Virus genome (UHGV): UHGV-0176603
DNA from: a virus
DNA length: 14,510 nucleotides
Reading direction: 5' to 3' (one strand)
The position numbers and the translations under genes are program-made. The notes beneath the pieces were generated by a model. That model saw only the letters and a list, made by a program, of their open reading frames with translations. It made no database searches and was not told the DNA's origin. This document shows, one piece after another, positions 17 through 12,434 of this stretch; within the stretch, counting starts at the first letter, position 1, and each line of letters opens with the position of its first letter.

Positions 17-157
17 TTACTGCTTACACTGTAAGAACGCCGCAAACTCCGCTCCCCAGAAGCTCATCCGTATTTCACACAGCGAACCGTGCAGCATCCA
101 GATGATGAGGATTACCGTCACGCAGAACGTGATGGCCGTAAGCGATTTTTGCGACAT
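17..157 (-). CDS. Hok/Gef-family type I toxin (small membrane toxin, HokA-like), 46 aa
   Basis: Manual reverse-complement translation of 157->17 gives MSQKSLTAITFCVTVILIIWMLHGSLCEIRMSFWGAEFAAFLQCKQ*, with an N-terminal hydrophobic helix and the SLCE(I) motif plus a C-terminal Cys typical of Hok/Gef. ATG at 157 is preceded by AAAGGAG at about 7 nt spacing. Below the 60-aa cutoff, so absent from the ORF track. Confidence 0.65.
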   Translation of the reverse strand: MSQKSLTAITFCVTVILIIWMLHGSLCEIRMSFWGAEFAAFLQCKQ

Positions 158-346: not shown

Positions 347-607
347 TTAATTCTGAGGTAAAGGCAAACTCATCTGATTGTTTCCCCTGTGTGAAGCTGG
401 CAGCTCATGCCACGGGATACCTTCTGATGAGTGAACGCCGGAGGCGTGTTTCGATGTGAATTTATGGAAAGCTTCCAGTGTTGAGAAGCATACGCCGCAT
501 TCCAGGTTGTTACACTGGTAATACTTTTGCCGCACGGTGTTTGAATCATTTTCCGGACGACTGGTGCGGATACGGGCAGATGCGCCACAAAGCGGACAAC
601 GGAACAT
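347..607 (-). CDS. ogr: Ogr/Delta-family zinc-finger late transcription activator
   Basis: 86-aa ORF starting MFRCPLCGASARIRTSR...YYQCNNLECG, matching the P2 Ogr pattern MFHCPLC...ARTSR...YHQC..C (CxxC...CxxxxC zinc finger). Strong RBS AAAGGAGGT upstream of ATG at 607. Lies just downstream of D, as in P2. Confidence 0.8.
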   Translation of the reverse strand: MFRCPLCGASARIRTSRPENDSNTVRQKYYQCNNLECGVCFSTLEAFHKFTSKHASGVHSSEGIPWHELPASHRGNNQMSLPLPQN

Positions 608-649: not shown

Positions 650-1759
650 TCACTCTGTTTCCGCTATCCATTCTGGGATTTTTGCTTCAAGCTCAAGCTG
701 CGTGGTAAAGCCGCTGTTATCAATGGTGTGCTCGGCTTTTGCAATAATCCAGTCCTGATTGTCGATGTCATTTTTGAAGCCTGTCACCGTGCCATGCATT
801 TCGGGATAGAGTTCTGCACGTCCACGCGCCAGCGTGATGGAGAATGATGCGGCTCCGCGTTGTAGTTGCTGCCACTTTGCCGCCGCTGCGCGTCTTGCTG
901 CCTGCTCGTTCTGATAAGTCTTGCGTAACACAAACACATTGCCTTCCGCGCCTTCCATATAATCACCTTCACGGCTGCTGCTTTTCTCCTTTTTGGGTTT
1001 TGGCGGTTTACGGCGTTTCACGCTGACTTTTTTCTTTTTCCCGTAATTAAGATCAAGCCAGTAGGCGCGTACCCCCGTATACGCCTCGCGGTCAGCAATA
1101 CGGAACTGATGGCGATCGCCGCTGCTGCGTGTAATGGCGAACGAGGGCAACGGCTGGCCCTGTGCGTTCACGCCACCACCTGGCATGATGAATAACAGAT
1201 TGCCGCTTTTTACCGTGGTGATTGCGCCCAGCATTTCCGCCATGCGCGTAAGGAAGGACATGTCGCTTTCTTCGGTCTGGTCGGCGTGGTCGATTTCGAT
1301 ATCCATCAGCATTTCGCTGATTTGCGGTTTCAGACCATACCGATGAGCGATGGCGGATACCACACGCTCAACGGTCACATCATGCCAGGACACCTCACGT
1401 TTAACGTTAAATTCATCCCGAAAATCTGCGCTTCTGGCTGAAACAGTCAGCCTGTCCGGCGGTCCTTCGTGAGCGATTTCATCAACAATGTAAGTGCCTT
1501 TTTCTGTCAGCGGTTCTCCCTTCCAGCCAATGAGAACCGTCAGGCGCGCGCCCCGTGGCGGTAGCTGCAACTGACCATCCGCATCATCCAGCGTGATGGT
1601 GAGCTGGTCCGCCTCAAATCCCCGGTTGTCGGTCAGCGACAGGCTCATCAGGCGCTCTGCCACGCCGGACAGCGTTTTACCCTCCGCGAGAATATCAAAA
1701 TCCGGCATTTTCACGGTGTCTGTGCCCTGACTGAGCAATTGCATGGTGGTGTCGGTCAT
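650..1759 (-). CDS. D: Tail protein D (P2 gpD-like late control/tail protein)
   Basis: ORF-track frame 650..1891; start reassigned to the ATG at 1759 (MTDTTMQLLSQG...), which has a GGGAGGG RBS about 6 nt upstream, giving 369 aa (P2 gpD is about 387 aa from memory). Position next to ogr matches P2. Confidence 0.85.
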   Translation of the reverse strand: MTDTTMQLLSQGTDTVKMPDFDILAEGKTLSGVAERLMSLSLTDNRGFEADQLTITLDDADGQLQLPPRGARLTVLIGWKGEPLTEKGTYIVDEIAHEGPPDRLTVSARSADFRDEFNVKREVSWHDVTVERVVSAIAHRYGLKPQISEMLMDIEIDHADQTEESDMSFLTRMAEMLGAITTVKSGNLLFIMPGGGVNAQGQPLPSFAITRSSGDRHQFRIADREAYTGVRAYWLDLNYGKKKKVSVKRRKPPKPKKEKSSSREGDYMEGAEGNVFVLRKTYQNEQAARRAAAAKWQQLQRGAASFSITLARGRAELYPEMHGTVTGFKNDIDNQDWIIAKAEHTIDNSGFTTQLELEAKIPEWIAETE

Positions 1760-1916
1760 CTGTTCCCTCCCTGTGCGGCATGGTCGCATGTGCGTGCGGA
1801 GTGGGTTACTGCTTTTTGTTGTCGCCGTGGCGGGAGAATAGCGCAGGGGTGAGATTACGCGCGTGGTGGGTGATGATTGTTGCTGAATCATTTAACGGAT
1901 ACAAGGGGCTGAAGCT
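1760..1916. promoter_or_regulatory. Divergent intergenic region between D (minus) and FI (plus); presumed to hold promoters for both
   Basis: 157-bp non-coding gap between two divergently oriented genes, each with its own RBS. Promoter elements are not confidently identifiable by eye. Confidence 0.3.
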
Positions 1917-3101
1917 ATGAGTGAAACTCGTTTTCATGGTGCCCGTGTTACGGAAAGTACCGACCTGGTAACAGCGATTAATGATGTTGATTCCAGCGTT
2001 ATCGGTATCGTGGCAACGGCGGATGATGCGGACGCGAAGCTGTTCCCGCTGAACAAGCCCACACTGCTGACCCGCGTCAATGACGTGCTGGGAAAATGCG
2101 GGACAACGGGGACGCTTTATCGTGCGCTTAAGGCCATCGCAGACCAGGTGAGCACAAAGGTGATCGTCGTTCGCGTGGCTGAACACAAAGAAGAAGACGG
2201 AAAGACGCAGGATCAACTGGTTATCGGTGGTTCTGAGGATGACGGCAGCTATACGGGGATGTATGCGCTGCTTGTTGCAGAGCAGGATGAAAGCATCGGA
2301 TACCGTCCGCGTATTCTGGCCGCGCCGGAGCTGGACACGGAGGCGGTAACAAAATCCCTGTGCGTGATTGCGGGTAAACTGCGCGCGTTTGTGTATGCCT
2401 CATGTCACGGCTGTAACACGATGGCTGAGGCGATTACCTACCGCCAGAAATTCAACGAACGTGAGGTGATGCTCTTATGGCCGGACTTCATCGCCTACAA
2501 CCCGAAAAGTGGCAAAAACGAAACGTTCCCCGCGCCTGCCTATGCGTGCGGCCTTCGTGCGTACATTGACCATGAACAGGGATGGCACAAATCGCTGTCC
2601 AACGTTCCGGTTAAAAATGTGCTGGGGATGTCCCGACATGTGTTCTGGTCGTTGCAGGCCGAAGACAGTGATGCCAACAGCCTCAACAACAAAGAAATCA
2701 CGACCATTATTCGTCGCAACGGGTTCCGCTTCTGGGGCAACCGCACACCGGAAACGAACGCCTACATCTTTGAGGTGTATACCCGAACCGCACAGGTGCT
2801 GGCTGATTCAATTGCGGAAGCGCAGTTTGAAACCATCGACAGTCCACTGACGCCTGCGAACGTGAAGGATGTTATCAGCGCCATCAGGGCAAAACTGGAT
2901 TCGCTGGTTACTGCCGGGAAACTGATTGGGGCGTCGTGCTGGTATGACATTGTGGATAACAGTACCACGGAATTGCGACAGGGGCGTGTGCGTATTCGCT
3001 ACAAATATACGCCCGTTCCTCCGCTGGAAGATATGGAGCTTTACCAGACGTTTACTGATGAATACTTTGATCCCGCATTTGCGGTGCTGGGAGGTGTCTG
3101 A
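1917..3101 (+). CDS. FI: Contractile tail sheath protein (P2 gpFI-like)
   Basis: 394-aa ORF (P2 FI is about 396 aa from memory) with conserved sheath motifs (KLRAF.Y, WPDF.A, GWHK.LSNV, IRR.GFRFWGNRT, YTRTAQV, YDYTPVPPLE). RBS AAGGGG 8 nt upstream of ATG. Confidence 0.9.
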   Translation: MSETRFHGARVTESTDLVTAINDVDSSVIGIVATADDADAKLFPLNKPTLLTRVNDVLGKCGTTGTLYRALKAIADQVSTKVIVVRVAEHKEEDGKTQDQLVIGGSEDDGSYTGMYALLVAEQDESIGYRPRILAAPELDTEAVTKSLCVIAGKLRAFVYASCHGCNTMAEAITYRQKFNEREVMLLWPDFIAYNPKSGKNETFPAPAYACGLRAYIDHEQGWHKSLSNVPVKNVLGMSRHVFWSLQAEDSDANSLNNKEITTIIRRNGFRFWGNRTPETNAYIFEVYTRTAQVLADSIAEAQFETIDSPLTPANVKDVISAIRAKLDSLVTAGKLIGASCWYDIVDNSTTELRQGRVRIRYKYTPVPPLEDMELYQTFTDEYFDPAFAVLGGV

Positions 3102-3613
3102 TGGCTGTACCAAAACATCTTCGCTTTTTTACGTTGTTTGTGGATGGTGAAAACGAAGTGGGCAAAGTGACATCCGTCACTCTGCCCAAACTGACGCGCA
3201 AAACCGACAGCTACCGGGGGGGCGGCATGATGGGTGCGGTAAGTATTGATCTCGGTCTGGACGACTCCGCGCTTGATGCGAGCTTTGTCATGGGGGGCGC
3301 AGTTCGTGAGCTGTTCCTTAAGTATGGCGGCACGATTGACGGCACGCTGCTGCGTTTTGCGGGTGAATACTACACCGATGCAGAAAGCGACCTGTATGAA
3401 GTCGAAATGCGCGGACGTGTGACGGAAATTGATATGGGGGAAGCCAAACAGGGCGAAGCCACATCACACACTTACGCCATTAAAAACACCTACTACAAGC
3501 TGAGTGTTAACGATCGCCCGTTGTGGGAGATTGACCTGCTGAACTTCATTTACCGGAAGGACGGCAAGGACATTGTGCCCGATCGCATCCGTTCCGCGCT
3601 TGGGCTTGGCTGA
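3101..3613 (+). CDS. FII: Tail tube protein (P2 gpFII-like)
   Basis: 170-aa ORF (P2 FII is about 172 aa from memory) whose ATG overlaps the FI stop (ATGA-type coupling); canonical position after the sheath gene. Confidence 0.88.
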   Translation: MAVPKHLRFFTLFVDGENEVGKVTSVTLPKLTRKTDSYRGGGMMGAVSIDLGLDDSALDASFVMGGAVRELFLKYGGTIDGTLLRFAGEYYTDAESDLYEVEMRGRVTEIDMGEAKQGEATSHTYAIKNTYYKLSVNDRPLWEIDLLNFIYRKDGKDIVPDRIRSALGLG

Positions 3614-3626
3614 TAAGTAATATGCA

Positions 3627-3645
3627 GGCGGCGCAGTGCGTCGCC
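3627..3645 (+). other. Stem-loop in the FII-E intergenic spacer (no U-tract)
   Basis: GGCGGCG-CAGTG-CGTCGCC: 7-bp stem (one G.U) with a 5-nt loop, followed by the E RBS AAAGGAG rather than a T-run. Confidence 0.25.
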
Positions 3646-3667
3646 TCTGACTGAAAGGAGTTTCCTG

Positions 3668-4033
3668 ATGAAAGAGACGAAAAACATCGATACCGAAAAC
3701 ACGGTAGTTACTGACACTGTGAAAGAAACCAGTGAGCGTGGCGTAAAACTTACCCAACCAATTGAGCGAAGCGGCGAAAAAATCACGTATGTGGAGATCA
3801 CCGGGGCTATTGAGCAGGCTGGATCTCTGCGAGATTTGTCGCTGTCTGATGTGCTGAGTCTGAAAGCGGAATCCATGTTTACGCTGCTGTCACGCGTGAC
3901 ATCACCGCGACTGGATGAAGTGACGATCAAAAAAATGGCATCCCGTGACTTTATTCAGTTATGTGTGGTTGCCGTAAATTTTTTGAGCGGTGCGGACTCT
4001 GGCGGGAAGAACGAACAGGCGACGGAAGCCTGA
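3668..4033 (+). CDS. E: Tail assembly chaperone E (P2 gpE-like)
   Basis: 121-aa ORF directly after the tube gene and before the tape measure; RBS AAAGGAG 7 nt upstream; contains the slippery site for E'. Confidence 0.85.
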   Translation: MKETKNIDTENTVVTDTVKETSERGVKLTQPIERSGEKITYVEITGAIEQAGSLRDLSLSDVLSLKAESMFTLLSRVTSPRLDEVTIKKMASRDFIQLCVVAVNFLSGADSGGKNEQATEA

Positions 4034-4197
4034 TCACGGTTGTGTGCTTTGAGCACATAGAAGACTTTGTGGCAGATATTGCCGTTATTTTTAACTGGTC
4101 GCCCGCCGAAATCTTCATGATGACGCCCGGCGAAGTGGTTAGCTGGCGTGAGCGGGCGGCACTTCGCAGCGGGAATGCAGACAATGAAGACTCTTGA
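3668..4197 (+). CDS. E': E' (E+E' fusion made by a -1 programmed ribosomal frameshift)
   Basis: At the slippery heptamer T TTT TTG (3979-3985) a -1 shift moves from the E frame into the 3961..4197 ORF frame, which then reads ERCGLWREERTGDG...NEDS*. Same layout as P2 E/E' and lambda G/GT. Confidence 0.7.
3979..3985 (+). promoter_or_regulatory. -1 frameshift slippery heptamer TTTTTTG
   Basis: Six T then G, positioned in the E zero frame as aaT TTT TTG; the -1 frame opens into the E' extension ORF. Confidence 0.7.
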
Positions 4198-6991
4198 TAT
4201 CCGGGTCGCTTTCAGCGCCGTTGACAGGCTGACCCGACCTGCCGAAAACGCACGCCGCCTGATGGGGCAGTTTGGTGACTCCATCCAGCGAACGCAGGGG
4301 GCGATCAAAAATCTCGAGCGTCAGGCGCGTTCATTTGAGCGCGCCCGCGACGCTGTCAGTAAAGCGGATGCGGGTATCGTGAAAGCACGACGCCAGCTTA
4401 ACGCCCTTAATCAGTTACAACGCACGGGTACAGTGCTCAGCGAAAAACAACAAAAGCTGATGCAGCAGTTAAGCACCCGGCTTGAACGCCTGAATGAATC
4501 GCGCACACGGGAAATTCAGAAAATGCGGGAGCTTGGAGGAGAGCTGAAACGCCACGGCATTTCCCTGACAGGCAGCGATAACACCATCCAGCAGGCCATC
4601 AGACGCACCGAACAGTACAACAACCAGCTTGAACGCGAACGGCAGGCGCTTGCGCGTGTAACGCGGGCGCGTGAGCGGTATTCGCGCGCGCAGGAAACCG
4701 CGGGAAAACTGAAAACAGGTGGTGCGCTGGCAATTGGTGCGGCAGCGGCGGGCGGCTATGCTGCCGGGCGTTTTTTGCAGCCTGCGATCGGGTTCGGGAA
4801 AGAGATGTCCCGCGTTCAGGCGCTGACGCGAATCGACCAGAACAGCCCACAGTTTAAGGCGCTGCGTGAGCAGGCGTTAAAACTTGGATCTGAAACGCAG
4901 TTCACCGCTGGAGATGCCGCCAGTGGACAGGCATTTCTTGCAATGGCTGGCTTCACACCACAGGCCATTCAGGCTGCGCTTCCCGGCGTGCTGAGCATGG
5001 CAACGGCTGGCGGTATGGATCTCGGCGAGACGGCGGATATTGGCTCAAACATCCTGACGCAGTTCGGCCTTTCTGCTGACCAGATGGACCGGGTCGGTGA
5101 CACGCTCACCGCAGCGTTTACCCGTACCAACACTGACCTTCGCGCACTGGGCGAAACCATGAAATATGCAGGTCCGGTGGCGGGTAAGCTGGGAATATCG
5201 CTGGAGCAGGCCGCAGCGATGGCGGGCGTGCTGGCGAATATGGGTATCAGGGGAAGTGATGCCGGGACGGCAATGCGTGCCAGCCTGGCTCGTCTGGCAT
5301 CACCACCAAAGGCGGCGGCAGAAGCTCTGAAAGAGCTGGGCGTGTCCGTCTCGGATGCCGGGGGCAAAATGCGCCCGATGGAGGATTTGCTGGCCGACCT
5401 TTATAAAGCCACCCGCAAATACGGGGAAGTTGACCGGGTATCGTTCTTTAAGGACATCGCCGGGGAAGAGGCTTTCACATCGTTTATGGCCCTCGTTGAT
5501 GCGGCAGGTGACGGCTCCTTACCCAAACTGAGAAAAGAACTTGAAGGCGCACGCGGTGAGGCTGAACGCACGGCAAAGGTTATGGCCAATAACCTTGATG
5601 GCGACCTGAAATCACTCGGCAGTGCATGGGAAGGGTTGCGCATCCGCATTGCAGATCTGATTGACGGCCCGCTGCGTTCTGTCACGCAGTGGCTCACGCG
5701 GGTGGTATCAAGGGTGACGGCGCTGGCGCAGGCCCATCCGGTACTGACGCGCCAGCTACTGATAGCAGGCGGTGCGCTGCTGGCAATGACTGCAACGGTT
5801 GGCTCGTTGTCGCTGGTTATTGGTGTGCTTCACGGGAAACTGGCCACGTTACGTCTTGGTTTTTCTCTCCTGACCGGATCAATGAATGTCGTCAGGGTGC
5901 TGCCAGCACTATGGGGAATGGTGACGGGTTCCGTTTCTTTACTGGGAGGCGCTATCGGGGCGCTGTTCAGTCCGGTCGGGTTGATTGCTGCAGCGTTTGT
6001 CGCTGCGGCGGTTCTCATCTGGAAATACTGGGAACCCATCAAGGCGTTTTATGCCGGGGTGTTCAGCGGGATTATGGAAAGACTGACCCCGTTGCGTGAA
6101 ACCTTTGAACGGTTTGGCCCTGTTTTTGACGCAATCGGAAGCGGGATCAGCCAGGTGTTTAACTGGTTTAAATCGCTGCTGTCACCGATGGAGTCCAGCA
6201 AGGAAACGCTGGATAAATGTACCAGTGCTGGCGAGATATTCGGTAATGTTCTTGGCGGTGCGTTACAACTTGTTCTGACGCCTGCAAAAATGCTACTGGA
6301 TACGCTGGCGTGGATACTTGAAAAACTTGGCGTCCTTCCGGATGAAGCGGAAAGGGCGCGCAAGAAAATCGAAGACGCACAGCGTGCGGCCATTCTTCAG
6401 GACAAGGTTGCTCTGTTTCAGGGAGACATTGCGAAAATCAATCCGCCGAAGTCTGCGGAAAATGGCAATGGCACCGGAGGCGATAAACCCAAAGACAACA
6501 AACCGCTCACAGACAGCAATACCGGTACGCTGCGCAGACTCAGCAAAATTGCTGATAACACAGGTAAGCTGGTTGAGGAGACGAAAAAACGCATTGGCCC
6601 CGGCGATATTGTCTTTAAAAACCTGCCCCGAGCACTTGCTGTTCGTGGGGAGTGGCAGGAGCGGAAGATTGCGCAGGTCAGTAAGCCTGCCCCCGCAATT
6701 AATATCACACCCGTGGTCCCGGCTCCGCTGCCTCCGGCGCTGGTCCCTGTTGTTGCGGCCAGCTCCCGCCCGGTGGCGGAGGCTATACGATCTCCAGTGG
6801 CATCAGTTCCTGTAACTTCCCGTAACCAGGAGCCTGTTGCCTCCGGATTTGGCGGTGAAATTCATGTTCATCTGCATAACGTTGTTACACAGAATCCCCG
6901 CGAACTGGCGAAACTGGTCGGTGAAATGGTCAGGGCAGAAATGGAACGGCGCGCCCGTGCCGGGCGTGGCAGTTTTTACGATAAAGATTGA
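4175..6991 (+). CDS. T: Tail tape measure protein (P2 gpT-like)
   Basis: Very long ORF (947 codons in the track from a GTG at 4148; first ATGs at 4175 and 4184) with a coiled-coil-like N-terminus, a central Gly/Ala-rich hydrophobic stretch and a Pro/Ala-rich C-terminus. Start codon uncertain. Confidence 0.85.
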   Translation: MQTMKTLDIRVAFSAVDRLTRPAENARRLMGQFGDSIQRTQGAIKNLERQARSFERARDAVSKADAGIVKARRQLNALNQLQRTGTVLSEKQQKLMQQLSTRLERLNESRTREIQKMRELGGELKRHGISLTGSDNTIQQAIRRTEQYNNQLERERQALARVTRARERYSRAQETAGKLKTGGALAIGAAAAGGYAAGRFLQPAIGFGKEMSRVQALTRIDQNSPQFKALREQALKLGSETQFTAGDAASGQAFLAMAGFTPQAIQAALPGVLSMATAGGMDLGETADIGSNILTQFGLSADQMDRVGDTLTAAFTRTNTDLRALGETMKYAGPVAGKLGISLEQAAAMAGVLANMGIRGSDAGTAMRASLARLASPPKAAAEALKELGVSVSDAGGKMRPMEDLLADLYKATRKYGEVDRVSFFKDIAGEEAFTSFMALVDAAGDGSLPKLRKELEGARGEAERTAKVMANNLDGDLKSLGSAWEGLRIRIADLIDGPLRSVTQWLTRVVSRVTALAQAHPVLTRQLLIAGGALLAMTATVGSLSLVIGVLHGKLATLRLGFSLLTGSMNVVRVLPALWGMVTGSVSLLGGAIGALFSPVGLIAAAFVAAAVLIWKYWEPIKAFYAGVFSGIMERLTPLRETFERFGPVFDAIGSGISQVFNWFKSLLSPMESSKETLDKCTSAGEIFGNVLGGALQLVLTPAKMLLDTLAWILEKLGVLPDEAERARKKIEDAQRAAILQDKVALFQGDIAKINPPKSAENGNGTGGDKPKDNKPLTDSNTGTLRRLSKIADNTGKLVEETKKRIGPGDIVFKNLPRALAVRGEWQERKIAQVSKPAPAINITPVVPAPLPPALVPVVAASSRPVAEAIRSPVASVPVTSRNQEPVASGFGGEIHVHLHNVVTQNPRELAKLVGEMVRAEMERRARAGRGSFYDKD

Positions 6992-6997
6992 GGAGTC

Positions 6998-7492
6998 ATG
7001 ACCATGATGATGATCTACGGCATGTTTGTTTTTGAGCTGCGTACATTGCCGCATCAGCAGTTACAGCAAAACAAAAGCTGGCGGCATGTGAAAAATGAAC
7101 GCGTTAACCGTTCAGCAAGCTGGCAGTATATCGGCGCAGGTGATGATCGCATTGTTCTTTCCGGCGTGCTTTATCCTGAAATTACAGGTGGCGAAGTGTC
7201 GCTGTCGCTGCTGACCACGCAGGCGTATACAGGACGCCCCTGGCCTCTGATTGATGGCGTCGGGCAGATTTACGGCATGTATGTCCTGACCGAAACGAGT
7301 ACAAACCGCTCTGAGTTTGATCGCTACGGTAAGGCGAAAAAGATAGAATTTTCACTGACCCTTGAACGCTGTGATGAGGATTTACGGGAGCGCCTGCAAT
7401 CCTCATCGTTCAGCGATATGCTGTCCGGCTTCAAAGATAAGGTGACATCATCTCTTAACAGTGCGGTCAGTTCTGTTAATGGACTGTTCTGA
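6998..7492 (+). CDS. U: Tail protein U (P2 gpU-like)
   Basis: 164-aa ORF just after T, GAGGAG RBS upstream; start may be the ATG at 6998 or 7004. Size and position match P2 gpU. Confidence 0.8.
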   Translation: MTMMMIYGMFVFELRTLPHQQLQQNKSWRHVKNERVNRSASWQYIGAGDDRIVLSGVLYPEITGGEVSLSLLTTQAYTGRPWPLIDGVGQIYGMYVLTETSTNRSEFDRYGKAKKIEFSLTLERCDEDLRERLQSSSFSDMLSGFKDKVTSSLNSAVSSVNGLF

Positions 7493-7536
7493 TTTAACGC
7501 AAATCACAAATAGTTAGATAAACAGAAATAACGATA

Positions 7537-7565
7537 AGGCCCGATATTCGGGCCTTTCGTTTATT
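7537..7565. terminator. Bidirectional rho-independent terminator between convergent U and G
   Basis: GGCCCG (7538-7543), loop ATATT, CGGGCC (7549-7554), then TTTCGTTTATT on plus; the minus strand reads as the same hairpin followed by TTATCGTTATTT. Confidence 0.6.
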
Positions 7566-8094
7566 CTGGTTGTTCCGGAAATGTAACGGGCAATTCAGAG
7601 GTATCAGTGGCTTCAATCTGTTGCACGTACCGCATCCAGTTCATCAGTTGTTGCCTGTCTGAATCAGTGATAATCCCCAAAGTAAGCTGGGTTTGCCAGA
7701 ACTGCGTTTTTTCTCTGGCCTGTTGTAACAACTTTTGTTTCTGATTTTCAACCTGCAACCGTTGCTCTTCTTCGGAATATATACGTTTAATGACGGCACC
7801 ATCCTTAAACATCCATTTACCTGAGTCATCAGCACGTCGGTTGGCGGTAATATCAGGAACCTCGACAACGCTGAAACCTTCAGGGTTAAGCGTTGAAGCA
7901 TCTCTGGTGATGCCGACAATTATATTATTCTCGTCGTAAACAATCTTTATCGTGTCTTCCTGAAAATTACTTACTTCCTCATACCAGTTTTTTCCCTCTT
8001 CGGACCATAACCAGATAACATCAAAATTTTTTGTCAGTTGATACTGGGCAACAGTTTTTGGATTACCCGCAGTAATATTTTTTAAATGCTGCAT
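7561..8094 (-). CDS. G: Tail fiber assembly chaperone (P2 gpG-like Tfa)
   Basis: 177-aa [42 protein letters not shown]...[32 protein letters not shown], very close to my recollection of the P2 gpG N-terminal domain; the C-terminal half diverges. Sits immediately downstream of H. Confidence 0.85.
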
Positions 8095-8097
8095 AAA

Positions 8098-10080
8098 CTA
8101 CACCTGTGCGACGTTATACCATGTGCCATTGATGTATTTTTGTATTGGTCTGAATACTGCGGGGTCATCACCATCGACTTCACCGACAATACCAAGCCCT
8201 GTAATTACATGCCCTGCTTTCTCATACATCACCCCTTTCTGCATGGTCTGGACAACACGTGTGCCAAGTCTGACATCTCTCACATAGCGGGAATCAAAGT
8301 TACCGTAATCCGAGGGATTAACACGCCCCGTAATATTTATGGTTTTATTACTTTGAATGCTACCGGAGACAAAGCGCATAACATGGACGTTATTAGCATA
8401 AACATCCAGATTACCGTCGCCATTTTGTTTAAAGCCCGTGTCATTATCACCCAAAACAATCGAGTTACCGCCAAGAGCACTGGATGTACCGATGCCCAGT
8501 GCACCATTCAATTGACCTCCAGATAATGACAACGCCCCAACATCAGCAGCAGTCGGTTTAATGTGCGAACTATAAATTACATATACAGTTCCATCTGTCA
8601 GGCCTGTTGGTTTATTCGCTGTATAAGTTGGTGATGTATGAATCGTTACGCTGGCGTTACTGGTATAATCCCACTGAATATTAACACCTGTGGCGTAATT
8701 ACCTATTTCAACATAAACATCATAGGTATCACCGGATGTATTCACCCATGCAAAATTAGTAAATCCAACCGAGGTCCGTCGCCATAACGCACCAGTAAGA
8801 CCTTTTGGATTTCCATTTCCCGCACGAAGAACAAGTTCAGATATACCAGCCTGCATAGGGGAGTTAACATTATATCCGGCACCACCAATCAGACTTATGT
8901 AAACCACGGAACTGGCCTGTGGCATGATTACAGTTGCCAGCCTGAACCATCCTGTACCACCACTAAAAGACATGGTTGTTGAATTTGTTGCTCCAATATT
9001 GCGCAGGAATAATCTTTTATCAGGAATATCCGCGCCATTTTGATCTTTCTGAAGACGTTTTTCAGCATTGTCATAGGCAGCCTTCACTGCTTTTGGCGTT
9101 GCCGCGAGGGTTTCAGAATCACTGTTTGCAGCGCTACTGAGCTGGACAAGGCCTTTTCGCGCTGTGGTGGCATCCTGCGCAGTATATTTCCCGTTAGCAA
9201 GGTCATACGCTGTCTTAACCGCCTTTGGCGTTGCCGCAAGCGTTTCAGAATCGCTGTTGGTGACGCTACTGAGCTGGACAAGGCCTTTTCGCGCTGTGGT
9301 GGCATCCTGTGCAGTGTATTTTCCGTTAGCAAGGTCATAGGCAGCCTTTACCGCCTTTGGCGTTGCGGCCAGCGTTTCAGAATCGCTGTTGGTGGCACTA
9401 CTGAGCTGGACAAGGCCTTTTCGCGCTGTTGTGGCATCCTGCGCAGTATATTTTCCGTTAGCAAGATCATACGCGGCCTTAACCGCTTTCGGCGTTGCGG
9501 CCAGCGTTTCAGAATCGCTGTTAGTGGCGCTACTGAGTTGAACAAAGCCTTTTGCGGTCAGCGAGGCGTCCGGGTGACGTCGTGACTGTTCATGCTCTTT
9601 CAGTTTGTCATCCACGTAATCCACTGTGGCCATCACCATGGTGTTATCCACGGTAAGCGCCACGGTGGCAGTGCTGGATACGGTCAGAATGGTGCGAAAT
9701 GTTTGTGCACGACCGGACCCTTCGGCAACGGCTGGCTTGTAACTTTCGGCAGTATTGCCCACCGCGATTAAATCGCCGTGCTCATCAAATACACCAATTT
9801 CCCGGATCCAGAATCCGCCCGTTTCTGGAGGAATAACCAGCTCTGCAATAATGCGGTTCTGATGTGTTGCGTCCAGGATGACGCGATTAACAGTATGTCG
9901 CCACACCTCATGCACCAGACGGGTCTGCTTACTGTCTGGTGTGGGCAATGTACCGCCACCGTCGCCCACGGCCATATGAGTCAGGCGGACAGGCTTACCA
10001 TCTGGCGCGGCTGCCTGAGCTAATTTTTTGGCACCCGTATTGGTGATAACGGTTTTAAATTTACGTGTTGTGGTACTCAT
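8098..10080 (-). CDS. H: Tail fiber protein (P2 gpH-like)
   Basis: 660-aa ORF with a conserved N-terminus (MAVGDGGG, EVWRH, IIAELVIPPE, SYKPA.AEGSG), four tandem fiber-repeat units, and a C-terminal receptor-binding region. Confidence 0.9.
   Translation of the reverse strand: MSTTTRKFKTVITNTGAKKLAQAAAPDGKPVRLTHMAVGDGGGTLPTPDSKQTRLVHEVWRHTVNRVILDATHQNRIIAELVIPPETGGFWIREIGVFDEHGDLIAVGNTAESYKPAVAEGSGRAQTFRTILTVSSTATVALTVDNTMVMATVDYVDDKLKEHEQSRRHPDASLTAKGFVQLSSATNSDSETLAATPKAVKAAYDLANGKYTAQDATTARKGLVQLSSATNSDSETLAATPKAVKAAYDLANGKYTAQDATTARKGLVQLSSVTNSDSETLAATPKAVKTAYDLANGKYTAQDATTARKGLVQLSSAANSDSETLAATPKAVKAAYDNAEKRLQKDQNGADIPDKRLFLRNIGATNSTTMSFSGGTGWFRLATVIMPQASSVVYISLIGGAGYNVNSPMQAGISELVLRAGNGNPKGLTGALWRRTSVGFTNFAWVNTSGDTYDVYVEIGNYATGVNIQWDYTSNASVTIHTSPTYTANKPTGLTDGTVYVIYSSHIKPTAADVGALSLSGGQLNGALGIGTSSALGGNSIVLGDNDTGFKQNGDGNLDVYANNVHVMRFVSGSIQSNKTINITGRVNPSDYGNFDSRYVRDVRLGTRVVQTMQKGVMYEKAGHVITGLGIVGEVDGDDPAVFRPIQKYINGTWYNVAQV
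9070..9570 (-). repeat. Four in-frame tandem repeats of about 132 bp (44 aa) inside H
   Basis: The unit KG(F/L)VQLSSATNSDSETLAATPKAVKAAYDLANGKYTAQDATTAR occurs four times (aa about 172-338) with only a few substitutions; the nucleotide copies are near-identical. Confidence 0.85.
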
Positions 10081-11856: not shown

Positions 11857-12434
11857 TGCGGGCCTCCTGTCGAATCGCTGCCGCCTTTCACGCCACCGTG
11901 TTTATGCGTATGCACGGTAATGCCGTTTGAGGTGAAGTTGCCGCCGCTGTGCGTGATATTGCCGCTCATCTTTCCTCCTTTTGTGACGTCAAGCGTCGCC
12001 GTTCTCAGAAGGTTTGTGCATTCCACGACGGGCGTATCCAGTTTCACGCTGACGGATGCCTGTAAAGTGGCCGTTTTCATGCCGCTGGCGCTCAGTGCGC
12101 CTGCGTCCGCGTCGTAGCGGAACACCGCGCCGTCCGGCGCGCTGATCACGATTTCTTTCAGGCTTTTGCCGGGGGCCGGACTGGCATCACTCCACAGGCT
12201 GCCAATTATCATGGCGGTTTCCGGGTTGCCGCCAATGCAGGCAATTACCACCTGTTCGCCTGGTGATGGCGGCAGCCACACATTGAAGGCTCCTGCGCGC
12301 GTGGTGTTCCAGCGCAACCAGCCTGTTTCCAGTTCGCCGCTGCGAACGCGCACGCACCAGGATTCCTCATCAACTTCAGAGATGATCCCGGTGCGGATGA
12401 TGTTGCTCAGCAGTCGCATGAGTTCTGCGCTCAC
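11853..12434 (-). CDS. V: Baseplate spike protein V (P2 gpV-like)
   Basis: 193-aa ORF with IRTGII, VGEQV, PVVECTN and KGG.M.GNI.H.GG...SNG...HTHKHGG (C-terminal HxH metal-binding apex), matching my recollection of P2 gpV. Start overlaps the S stop. Confidence 0.9.
   Translation of the reverse strand: MSAELMRLLSNIIRTGIISEVDEESWCVRVRSGELETGWLRWNTTRAGAFNVWLPPSPGEQVVIACIGGNPETAMIIGSLWSDASPAPGKSLKEIVISAPDGAVFRYDADAGALSASGMKTATLQASVSVKLDTPVVECTNLLRTATLDVTKGGKMSGNITHSGGNFTSNGITVHTHKHGGVKGGSDSTGGPQ

Follow-up and report, generated by a model that had tools for sequence, protein, structure and literature searches.

The tail genes FI-FII-E/E'-T-U of the viral sequence UHGV-0176603 lie in opposite orientation to their P2-like neighbors, and this flipped block is almost certainly a fixed, ancient gene order of the lineage, not a switch, an accident or an artifact. 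Overall, the findings in the window (the whole stretch of DNA that was analyzed, 14,510 nt) are best explained, with a probability of about 0.9, by a P88-like prophage that inherited a once-inverted P_F-FI-U segment, including a putative two-way promoter in the spacer between D and FI.

Gene Content of the Window and Comparison with P2

Genes were assigned from the ORF map, PHROG and Pfam matches, and tblastn against P2. The main features, by position in the window, are as follows.

347-607, minus strand: ogr-type late activator, 86 aa (Pfam Ogr_Delta, E = 5e-14; 36% amino acid identity to P2 Ogr)
650-1759, minus strand: D, tail/baseplate hub, 369 aa, facing away from FI and not part of the inverted block (Pfam Phage_GPD; 48% identity to P2 D, 96% to P88 D)
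1917-3101, plus strand: FI, tail sheath, 394 aa (three Pfam sheath domains; 46% identity to P2 FI, 98% to P88)
3101-3613, plus strand: FII, tail tube, 170 aa (Pfam Phage_tube, E = 7.5e-47)
3668-4033, plus strand: E, tail assembly chaperone, 121 aa (phrog_103 tail protein; length as in P88)
3979-3985, plus strand: T-TTT-TTG -1 slippery site for E+E' (sequence and reading frames)
4042-4197, plus strand: E' part, GpE family, -1 frame (Pfam Phage_P2_GpE, E = 7e-13)
4184-6991, plus strand: T, tape measure, 935 aa, with the same start codon as in P88 (ATG at 4184) (Pfam PhageMin_Tail; phrog_28; P88 annotation)
6998-7492, plus strand: U, tail protein, 164 aa, final gene of the inverted block (Pfam Phage_P2_GpU, E = 4.6e-39)
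7561-8094, minus strand: G, tail-fiber assembly protein, convergent with U (Pfam Caudo_TAP; 67% identity to P2 G)
8098-10080, minus strand: H, tail fiber, 660 aa (phrog_381; tblastn to P2 H)

Beyond H, the minus-strand run continues with I, J, W, V, S, and R. In the ORF map, ogr, D, and the genes from G through the lysis genes are therefore all on the minus strand, and FI-FII-E/E'-T-U (1917-7492) is on the plus strand. Homologs of FI, FII, E/E', T, U, and D were all found by Pfam and PHROG, together with the Ogr/Delta zinc-finger activator (zinc-finger cysteines C4, C7, C32, and C37), which identifies a Peduoviridae tail module. E gave no tblastn match to P2, and its identity is based on PHROG and Pfam. 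The T-TTT-TTG heptamer is in the E frame and the GpE domain is encoded by the -1 frame, as in the E/E' frameshift of P2, which has the same heptamer and whose record marks this gene as having a -1 frameshift. Translation of D begins at 1759, on an ATG that follows a GGAGGG ribosome-binding site; a longer D ORF reaching 1891 was rejected as an artifact of a frame that happens to stay open through the spacer. An Rfam scan of the window returned zero matches.

The P2 record places R, S, V, W, J, I, H, G, FI, FII, E, T, U, D, and ogr on one strand, with only the moron Z/fun opposed. The same gene set, one to one from R through ogr, is present in the window (tblastn; E by PHROG and Pfam), with amino acid identities of 25-74%, mostly 33-74%, and of 33-48% for the tail-module genes except E. 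Unlike in P2, where G-FI-FII-E-T-U-D-ogr follow one another on one strand, FI-U and its promoter are inverted in the window and lie opposite to G, D, and ogr, so that D no longer closes the F operon and must have a promoter of its own. The window also differs from P2 in lacking the Z/fun moron between G and the block, and in the overlap of S and V, which leaves no orf30/P_V region. The initial annotation had described the block as inverted relative to the flanking P2-like genes, described P2 as keeping these genes on one strand, placed the junctions at 1760-1916 and 7493-7560, and judged the proteins to be intact. Each of these statements is borne out: the junction coordinates are exact, the ORFs of the block have the lengths annotated in P88, at 96-100% identity, and the frameshift heptamer is in place.

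P88-Like Relatives Carrying the Same Layout

The window very probably belongs to a P2-family prophage of the P88-like (Xuanwuvirus) type. Its strand string is identical to those of P88 and PhiSM, in which hok, ogr, and D are followed by FI-U on the opposite strand and then, back on the first strand, by the genes from the tail fiber to the lysis genes. PhiSM, PhiR44_2, 503458, and 500465-2 share 95-97% nucleotide identity with 82-88% of the window, these comparisons with P88-type genomes referring to the 14.5-kb window, and the P88 alignment covers 57% of the window because its tail-fiber segment differs. The 157-bp D-FI spacer and the activator dyad within it (described below) are identical to the window in P88 and its close relatives. 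Unlike P88, which has a DNA invertase and a ~2-kb invertible alternative tail-fiber segment between U and G, the window has neither, and the distal part of its H and G sequence resembles that of P2-type phages (82-88% identity). The direct 68-bp U-G junction occurs in exactly this form in 28 E. coli genomes, and such junctions are common across the wider clade.

The inverted layout is annotated in P88, PhiSM, phiT5282H, SEN5, KSP20, ST16-OXA48phi5.4, and 3LV2017, of which KSP20 has the oldest-looking accession. It recurs in P88 (genus Xuanwuvirus), in phages belonging to four further ICTV genera, and in 23 prophages of ~14 enterobacterial genera. At a minimum, the clade comprises Xuanwuvirus, Novemvirus, Reipivirus, Reginaelenavirus, Senquatrovirus, and Serratia phage KSP20. 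With five ICTV genera sharing the inverted order, the one-strand order is a trait of P2 itself and is no criterion for Peduoviridae. In addition, P88 and PhiSM are plaque-forming phages (PMC5285337, PMC6456863), indicating that the inverted layout works. The initial annotation had suggested surveying the orientation in related prophages, and had reasoned that the layout would be a known variant if close relatives routinely carried it; they do, and the inverted order is therefore a known variant of the lineage. Our literature search found no explicit description of the inversion or of a D-FI promoter: the inversion goes unmentioned in papers on P88, PhiSM, SEN4/5, and the Serratia PP4/KSP20 prophage, and a paper on Burkholderia P2-like phages applies the word "inverted" to IS elements only.

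Survey and Phylogeny of the Inverted Order

Of 5426 complete E. coli genomes, 1355 (~25%) align across the D-FI junction in one uninterrupted piece, and 764 genomes match at least 80% of the length of the window collinearly. By contrast, a mock U-D junction in the P2 orientation was contiguous in 0 of the 1411 genomes having either half. A first scan of viral contigs returned relatives that were 98-99% identical only, which confirmed the layout but did not address its phylogenetic depth.

Loci were surveyed more broadly in a GTDB-based collection with one genome per species, from which the best 80 of 165 matches were taken. Among these 80 matches, all 23 loci with a sheath at least 58% identical to that of the window are inverted, whereas the other D-containing loci are collinear (51/51). 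In neighbor-joining trees, constructed without bootstrap support, the inverted loci form an exclusive clade for both FI (31/31) and D (28/28), and in both trees this clade nests among collinear taxa when Burkholderia prophages are used as the root. Sheath identity within the inverted clade falls to 56%. The exclusive clade in both trees indicates a single old inversion that has been retained ever since. A second, independent inversion may have taken place elsewhere in Peduoviridae, as the survey comprises the best 80 of 165 matches from one collection. Clade-specific remodeling was also sought at the U C-terminus and D N-terminus, which flank the old U-D breakpoint; these ends vary in both the inverted and the collinear groups, and therefore allow no inference on remodeling of the breakpoint.

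Very probably, in the common ancestor of this Peduoviridae clade, a segment containing P_F and FI-FII-E/E'-T-U was inverted once relative to cos and all the other genes. In a circular genome, inverting this segment is the same event as inverting all the rest.

A Predicted Two-Way Late Promoter in the D-FI Spacer

The inversion would have separated D from the F operon, leaving D and FI divergent across a spacer that contains the following features.

1760-1916, no strand: divergent D-FI spacer, 157 bp, left inversion junction and proposed two-way late promoter region (spacer alignment, conserved blocks)
1780-1788, minus strand: predicted extended -10 element TGcGACCAT of the D promoter, predicted start ~1773 (mirrors the FI side)
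1820-1837, no strand: Ogr-type activator dyad TGT-N12-AGA, center 1828.5 (conserved across relatives)
1872-1877, plus strand: predicted -10 hexamer GATGAT of a P_F-like promoter, predicted start ~1884 (aligns with the conserved GATTAT of relatives, positions 53-58 from the dyad start)

Once the start of D is corrected, nearly all inverted loci have a spacer of ~150-157 bp (locus L104 has 140 bp), with the D start unplaceable in two loci; raw tblastn estimates before this correction were 157-180 bp. The dyad was recognized through the alignment of the spacer over relatives and through the extended motif TTGTTGT-N12-ASA at 1816-1837, which has its sole match in the window here, vs. 0.09 expected by chance. 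Nearly all inverted-type loci have it in the corresponding position, and P2-type loci essentially lack it. The window dyad has one mismatch to the P2 consensus (AGA for ACA); a search of the whole window for the perfect TGT-N12-ACA dyad gave 0 matches, and allowing one mismatch gave 73 matches vs. 68 expected, which is uninformative alone. The perfect dyad is present in loci L104, L106, L107, L167, L168, and L170. The spacer gave no match in a generic sigma-70 scan, which is expected for activator-dependent promoters.

On the FI side, the predicted P_F-like promoter and Ogr-type activator have counterparts upstream of FI in P2 at comparable spacing, the distance from the dyad center to the FI ATG being 88.5 nt in the window and 82.5 nt in P2. 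The spacer as a whole resembles the P2 P_P/P_O region. The P2-type shared-site design entails activation by an Ogr-family protein through the alpha subunit of RNA polymerase. P_P/P_O has one annotated activator site and starts at 3016 and 3127; the distance between these starts is 111 bp, and the dyad center is 55.5 nt from either one. In both regions, divergent late genes are separated by a spacer of ~155 bp with one TGT-N12-NNA dyad at its middle, and on either side of the dyad a -10 hexamer occupies positions 53-58, those of the window being predicted here; the P_O hexamer has the same offset as that of the FI side, with its annotated start at position 65. The predicted starts of the window, placed from the mirrored -10-like hexamers, are likewise 111 bp apart. 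Hexamers resembling -10 elements occupy positions 53-58 on both strands in 13 diverged lineages. The 154-bp P-O spacer of P88 shares the arrangement and carries the same dyad variant and flank, TCT-N12-ACA-ACAAAAG. Unlike P_P/P_O, the putative promoter of the window is situated at D-FI, a locus that exists only because of the inversion, and its starts and Ogr dependence are predicted.

From this likeness and from sequence conservation, the single dyad probably drives both P_F rightwards and a D promoter leftwards. In that case the D-FI spacer would now hold one dyad-symmetric Ogr-type site serving both directions, with a rightward P_F start at ~1884 and a leftward D start at ~1773 in the manner of the P2 P_P/P_O design. 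We also lean slightly towards the idea that the inversion was tolerated and then fixed because the dyad-symmetric Ogr site, placed back to back with the orphaned D, yielded a second P_P/P_O-style promoter and uncoupled low-copy D from the high-copy sheath and tube. The D-FI junction would represent a natural experiment in promoter evolution: following an inversion, an activator site with dyad symmetry seems to have been put to use again, now in both directions.

It is also conceivable, though less likely, that the inversion is fixed as described and D is not driven by the shared dyad, having instead an activator-free promoter with an extended -10, a second site that went unrecognized, or a different control together with ogr. 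The D-side -10 hexamer, GACCAT, is weak and has a TG extension that can dispense with activation, and the D promoter could therefore fire without the activator. Furthermore, this hexamer differs among lineages, a conserved CGCGCGCG block sits between the dyad and the -10 element, and the Ogr dependence of D is argued by analogy. However, 12 of 13 representative lineages conserve TG-n-RAnnnT on the D strand, 50-58 positions from the dyad, giving the D-side hexamer the same offset as that of the FI side despite the diverged intervening sequence. The agreement of the 111-bp start spacing with the annotation of P_P/P_O, where one site is shared, also argues against an independent D promoter, as does the status of D in P2 as a late structural gene of the Ogr-dependent F operon.

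The U-G Junction

At the other end of the block, the 68-bp gap between U and G contains a terminator.

7536-7556, no strand: GC-rich hairpin with T-runs on both strands, two-way terminator at the convergent U-G right junction (terminator scan matches on both strands)

The fold z-scores of the hairpin are -6.4 on the plus strand and -5.3 on the minus strand. Transcription of FI-U and the long transcription unit that ends with G would both stop at this hairpin.

Other Explanations for the Orientation

One alternative is a programmed flipping of the block by a DNA invertase of the Gin/Cin/Hin type, since P88, PhiSM, and many E. coli prophages have a serine invertase as the next gene after U. As with the Mu G segment, the P1 C segment, and the P88-like fiber cassette, a tail-region segment is found here in the orientation opposite to that of a reference phage. 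We regard such flipping as highly improbable, because none of the three hallmarks of such switches (crossover repeats, both orientations, and an adjacent serine invertase) was found. Inverted repeats flanking 1760-7560 were not detected, nor were relics of recombination at the block ends, and none of the 25 longest of 360 repeat pairs, nor any found by inspection, pairs 1760-1916 with 7493-7560. Only one orientation was seen in 1355-1411 genomes. The window has no invertase and only the 68-bp gap between U and G, and other invertase-free members of the clade share its orientation. In the many P88-like relatives with an invertase gene beside U, the gene flanks the tail-fiber cassette and the enzyme serves that segment. 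Unlike the segments inverted by Gin, Cin, and Hin, the block consists of 5.6-5.8 kb of essential genes and not of alternative fiber tips.

The initial annotation had offered three readings of the orientation, of which the lineage-specific rearrangement stands and the other two, a recent inversion in a decaying prophage and an assembly error, fall. A recent inversion private to this prophage, favored by nothing beyond what the P2 gene order would lead one to expect beforehand, has a negligible probability: the order is kept by every member of an exclusive clade spanning five ICTV genera and ~14 host genera, within which the sheath has diverged to 56%, and it is found in the plaque-forming phages P88 and PhiSM (PMC5285337, PMC6456863). 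In addition, the genes of the block are all full length with the E/E' frameshift site intact, and near-identical (>95%) prophages in the P2 orientation are absent among the 1411 genomes. An assembly or scaffolding error with a flipped contig, suggested by the unexpected orientation and nothing more, is the least credible of all, given a left junction that is one alignment piece in 1355 complete E. coli genomes, with 0 of 1411 showing the P2-orientation junction, an exact U-G junction contiguous in 28 genomes and direct U-G junctions common in the wider clade, the conserved regulatory architecture of the spacer, and the purpose-built two-way terminator at the other end.

P2 is thus not a template for all P2-like phages; a large and common branch carries the operon from the sheath gene to U on the other strand, and this orientation should therefore not be counted as a sign of prophage decay or misassembly.

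Gene Layout and Relation to P88

An ORF map, PHROG and Pfam scans, and tblastn against P2 gave the following layout for the window, with genes named after their P2 homologs:

17-157, minus strand: hok/gef-family gene
347-607, minus strand: ogr
650-1759, minus strand: D
1917-3101, plus strand: FI
3101-3613, plus strand: FII
3668-4033, plus strand: E
to 4197, plus strand: E' (-1 frame)
4184-6991, plus strand: T
6998-7492, plus strand: U
7561-8094, minus strand: G
8098-10080, minus strand: H
beyond 10080, minus strand: I, J, W, V, S, R, and part of the lysis cassette

In the P2 record, R, S, V, W, J, I, H, G, FI, FII, E, T, U, D, and ogr all lie on a single strand, which bears out the claim of the initial annotation that the FI-U block is opposite in strand to its flanking genes; the junctions at 1760-1916 and 7493-7560 are likewise correct according to the ORF map. 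The block genes are intact, as had been proposed: they have the same lengths as in P88 at 96-100% identity, and the T-TTT-TTG slippery heptamer of E/E' is in the correct frame (3979-3985). The true start of D is the ATG at 1759, which is preceded by a GGAGGG ribosome-binding site and is equivalent to the ATG annotated in the P88 record. A coding extension of D to 1891 was rejected, as the extra residues match nothing, the phrog_52 match beginning with residue 43 of this longer ORF.

Among the relatives surveyed (L-numbered loci), RefSeq/PGAP enters D as a "VgrG/Pvc8 family" protein of 266 aa together with a pseudo "hypothetical" (L004 2649-3449; L005 2639-3439), as it does in many E. coli prophages; translation of D in loci of this type gives an intact 369-aa ORF. 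In Citrobacter phage Shae_phiSM (L002, OR565851), product names at 2294-4745 are one gene out of register, such that D carries the name "ogr/Delta-like zinc finger" and the sheath that of "late control gene D protein."

The window belongs among the P88-like phages, and differs from P88 solely in lacking the invertase and alternative fibre cassette (~2 kb) and in its P2-like fibre tip. Distal H and G (7500-9850) are AT-rich (42-43% GC vs. ~55% elsewhere) and are 82-91% identical to P2-type Escherichia/Yersinia phages, not P88, which points to a putative swap of the receptor-binding tip and its chaperone. Within H, a tandem array at 9070-9553 (period 132 bp, 3.7 copies, 89% matches) encodes 44-residue tail-fibre shaft repeats. 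S and V overlap at 12431-12434, and the orf30 region with the separate PV-type spacer of P2 is missing; R-S-V-W-J-I-H-G probably continue the O operon in this lineage. At the prophage end, beside ogr, the 46-aa Hok/Gef-family toxin gene (Pfam HOK_GEF, E = 3.7e-07) corresponds to a gene annotated as MokW-like in P88 and adjoins serS at the prophage border in E. coli S12; no hok/sok RNA reached the Rfam gathering score in the window.

Distribution and Origin of the Inverted Block

In a megablast search of a phage collection, each P88-type phage aligned to the window in a single collinear place (95-97% identity), with coverage of 82-88% for PhiSM, PhiR44_2, 503458, and 500465-2, and 57% for P88. 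The genes of P88 and PhiSM are annotated on the same strands as those of the window. The divergent D|FI junction (window 1300-2400) is unbroken in 1355 of 5426 complete E. coli genomes, and the window is collinear over at least 80% of its length in 764. A control junction built in the P2 order (the D 5' end joined to the reverse complement of the U 3' end) was found with both halves together in none of the 1411 genomes having either half. The U|G junction exactly as in the window, with no invertase, is less common (28 genomes). In most E. coli relatives this position is occupied by a DNA invertase and an invertible tail-fibre cassette, and in the wider clade U and G are often joined directly, with junctions of 50-220 bp.

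For a species-level scan (one genome per bacterial species), the window/P2 sheath alignment served as query, the best 80 of 165 hits were kept, and both protein sets were run by tblastn on all 80 loci. Among these 80, all 23 loci with a sheath at least 58% identical to that of the window are arranged as ogr- D- | FI+ ... U+ | (G-) H- I- J-, while the 51 remaining loci that include D are all collinear with P2, Burkholderia prophages among them; six further loci end before D. Hosts of the inverted loci are labelled Salmonella, Citrobacter, Edwardsiella, Enterobacter, Kosakonia, Symbiopectobacterium, Mixta, Pantoea, Erwinia, Trabulsiella, Izhakiella, Klebsiella, Pectobacterium, and another Enterobacteriaceae bacterium, plus one Vagococcus assembly that is probably contaminated. 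The latter (Vagococcus sp. WN89Y, labelled as a Firmicute) holds two enterobacterial P2-family prophage loci (L087, L133), one with a sheath 97% identical to that of the window, and is probably contaminated or mislabelled. Named phages with the inverted order include phiT5282H (Novemvirus), KSP20, ST16-OXA48phi5.4 (Reipivirus), 3LV2017 (Reginaelenavirus), and SEN5 (Senquatrovirus; sheath 56% identical), and the next phage in the ranking, vB_YenM_42.18 (Firavirus; 51%), is collinear with P2. Trabulsiella odontotermitis (L099), a member of the inverted clade, shows an additional local rearrangement downstream of U (U+ I+ H+ G-).

Neighbor-joining trees without bootstrap support, with Burkholderia prophages as the root, group the inverted loci into an exclusive clade both for FI, inside the block (31/31), and for D, outside it (28/28). 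A single inversion in the clade ancestor, kept since, is the simplest reading. For a circular phage genome, a flip of FI-U is equivalent to a flip of its complement; "FI-U inverted" is the natural wording because cos and all other genes retain the P2 order.

The initial annotation had left three explanations open, of which a lineage-specific rearrangement stands, given the same order across an exclusive clade. A recent inversion in a decaying prophage is excluded by the D|FI junction in 1355 E. coli genomes and by that order throughout a diverged clade, and an assembly error by the same junction counts, the lack of any P2-order junction and the clade-wide order. A programmed switch is also excluded: no inverted repeats bracketing the block were found (25 longest of 360 pairs, plus inspection), the window has no invertase gene, a single orientation is seen, and clade members without invertase share it. 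The inverted layout is functional, since P88 and PhiSM are inducible and plaque-forming (PMC5285337, PMC6456863). PhiSM was described with a long non-contractile tail (PMC6456863), which is odd given its sheath and tube genes.

The arrangement is not new but ordinary in this lineage, and is present in annotated public genomes and five ICTV genera (oldest-looking accession, KSP20). The papers covered on P88, PhiSM, SEN4/5, and the Serratia PP4/KSP20 prophage contain no comment on the inversion. The sole possibly new element is a putative two-way D/F late promoter.

A Putative Two-Way Promoter and Terminator at the Junctions

The F operon of P2 ends with D, which the inversion would thus have detached and orphaned. 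Once D start codons are corrected, nearly all inverted loci have a D|FI spacer of ~150-157 bp (140 bp in L104; D start unplaceable in two loci; in L099, none placeable at the usual distance from the dyad). The spacer alignment contains a single strongly conserved element, TTTTTGTTGT-N12-AGA/ACA (window 1816-1837), including a dyad at 1820-1837 (center 1828.5); in six relatives this dyad perfectly matches TGT-N12-ACA, the consensus for those late promoters of P2 that depend on Ogr (PMC3931495, citing Christie and Calendar, 1985; Julien and Calendar, 1995). The window has one copy of the extended motif (chance expectation, 0.09); nearly all inverted-type loci have it at this position, and P2-type loci almost never do.

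When 13 diverged lineages were registered on the dyad, a conserved GATTAT appeared at 53-58 from it on the FI strand (GATGAT in the window, 1872-1877), and the D strand showed a conserved TG-n-RAnnnT whose hexamer likewise falls at 53-58 (TGcGACCAT in the window, plus-strand 1780-1788). These mirrored hexamers predict starts near 1884 (+) and 1773 (-), 111 bp apart and each 55.5 nt from the dyad center. For the divergent P and O operons, the P2 record lists a single "activator binding site; pO, pP promoters"; the two starts (3016 and 3127) are also 111 bp apart, each 55.5 nt from the center of a TGT-N12-CCA dyad. The P|O spacer of P88 (154 bp) carries the same dyad variant and flank, TCT-N12-ACA-ACAAAAG, the sole other extended-motif copy in the 25 kb of P88 examined.

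Based on dyad conservation, the mirrored hexamers, and this likeness to P2 and P88 P|O (one shared site with divergent starts, predicted in our case), we propose that the D|FI spacer may be a second shared-site two-way late promoter, with a probability of roughly 0.55-0.6. The main rival is that D is driven by an independent extended -10 promoter. Under the proposed two-way promoter, one dyad would drive FI rightwards and D leftwards.

At the other junction, the convergent U and G genes are separated by a GC-rich hairpin of 9 bp (7536-7556) that has T-runs on either strand; given these T-runs and its fold z-scores of -6.4 and -5.3, it is a predicted two-way terminator.

The junctions around the inverted block also act as cargo sites in relatives. 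E. coli EC21Z-048 has a SIR2-family and TIR-domain gene pair between ogr and D (L004 628-2543), and a SIR2-family gene is also listed in the match to E. coli HSP60 (H138). In Klebsiella phage ST16-OXA48phi5.4, U is separated from the fibre genes by a DUF262 gene and a hypothetical gene (L169 7809-9712), and SEN5 carries a macro-domain gene among its fibre genes.
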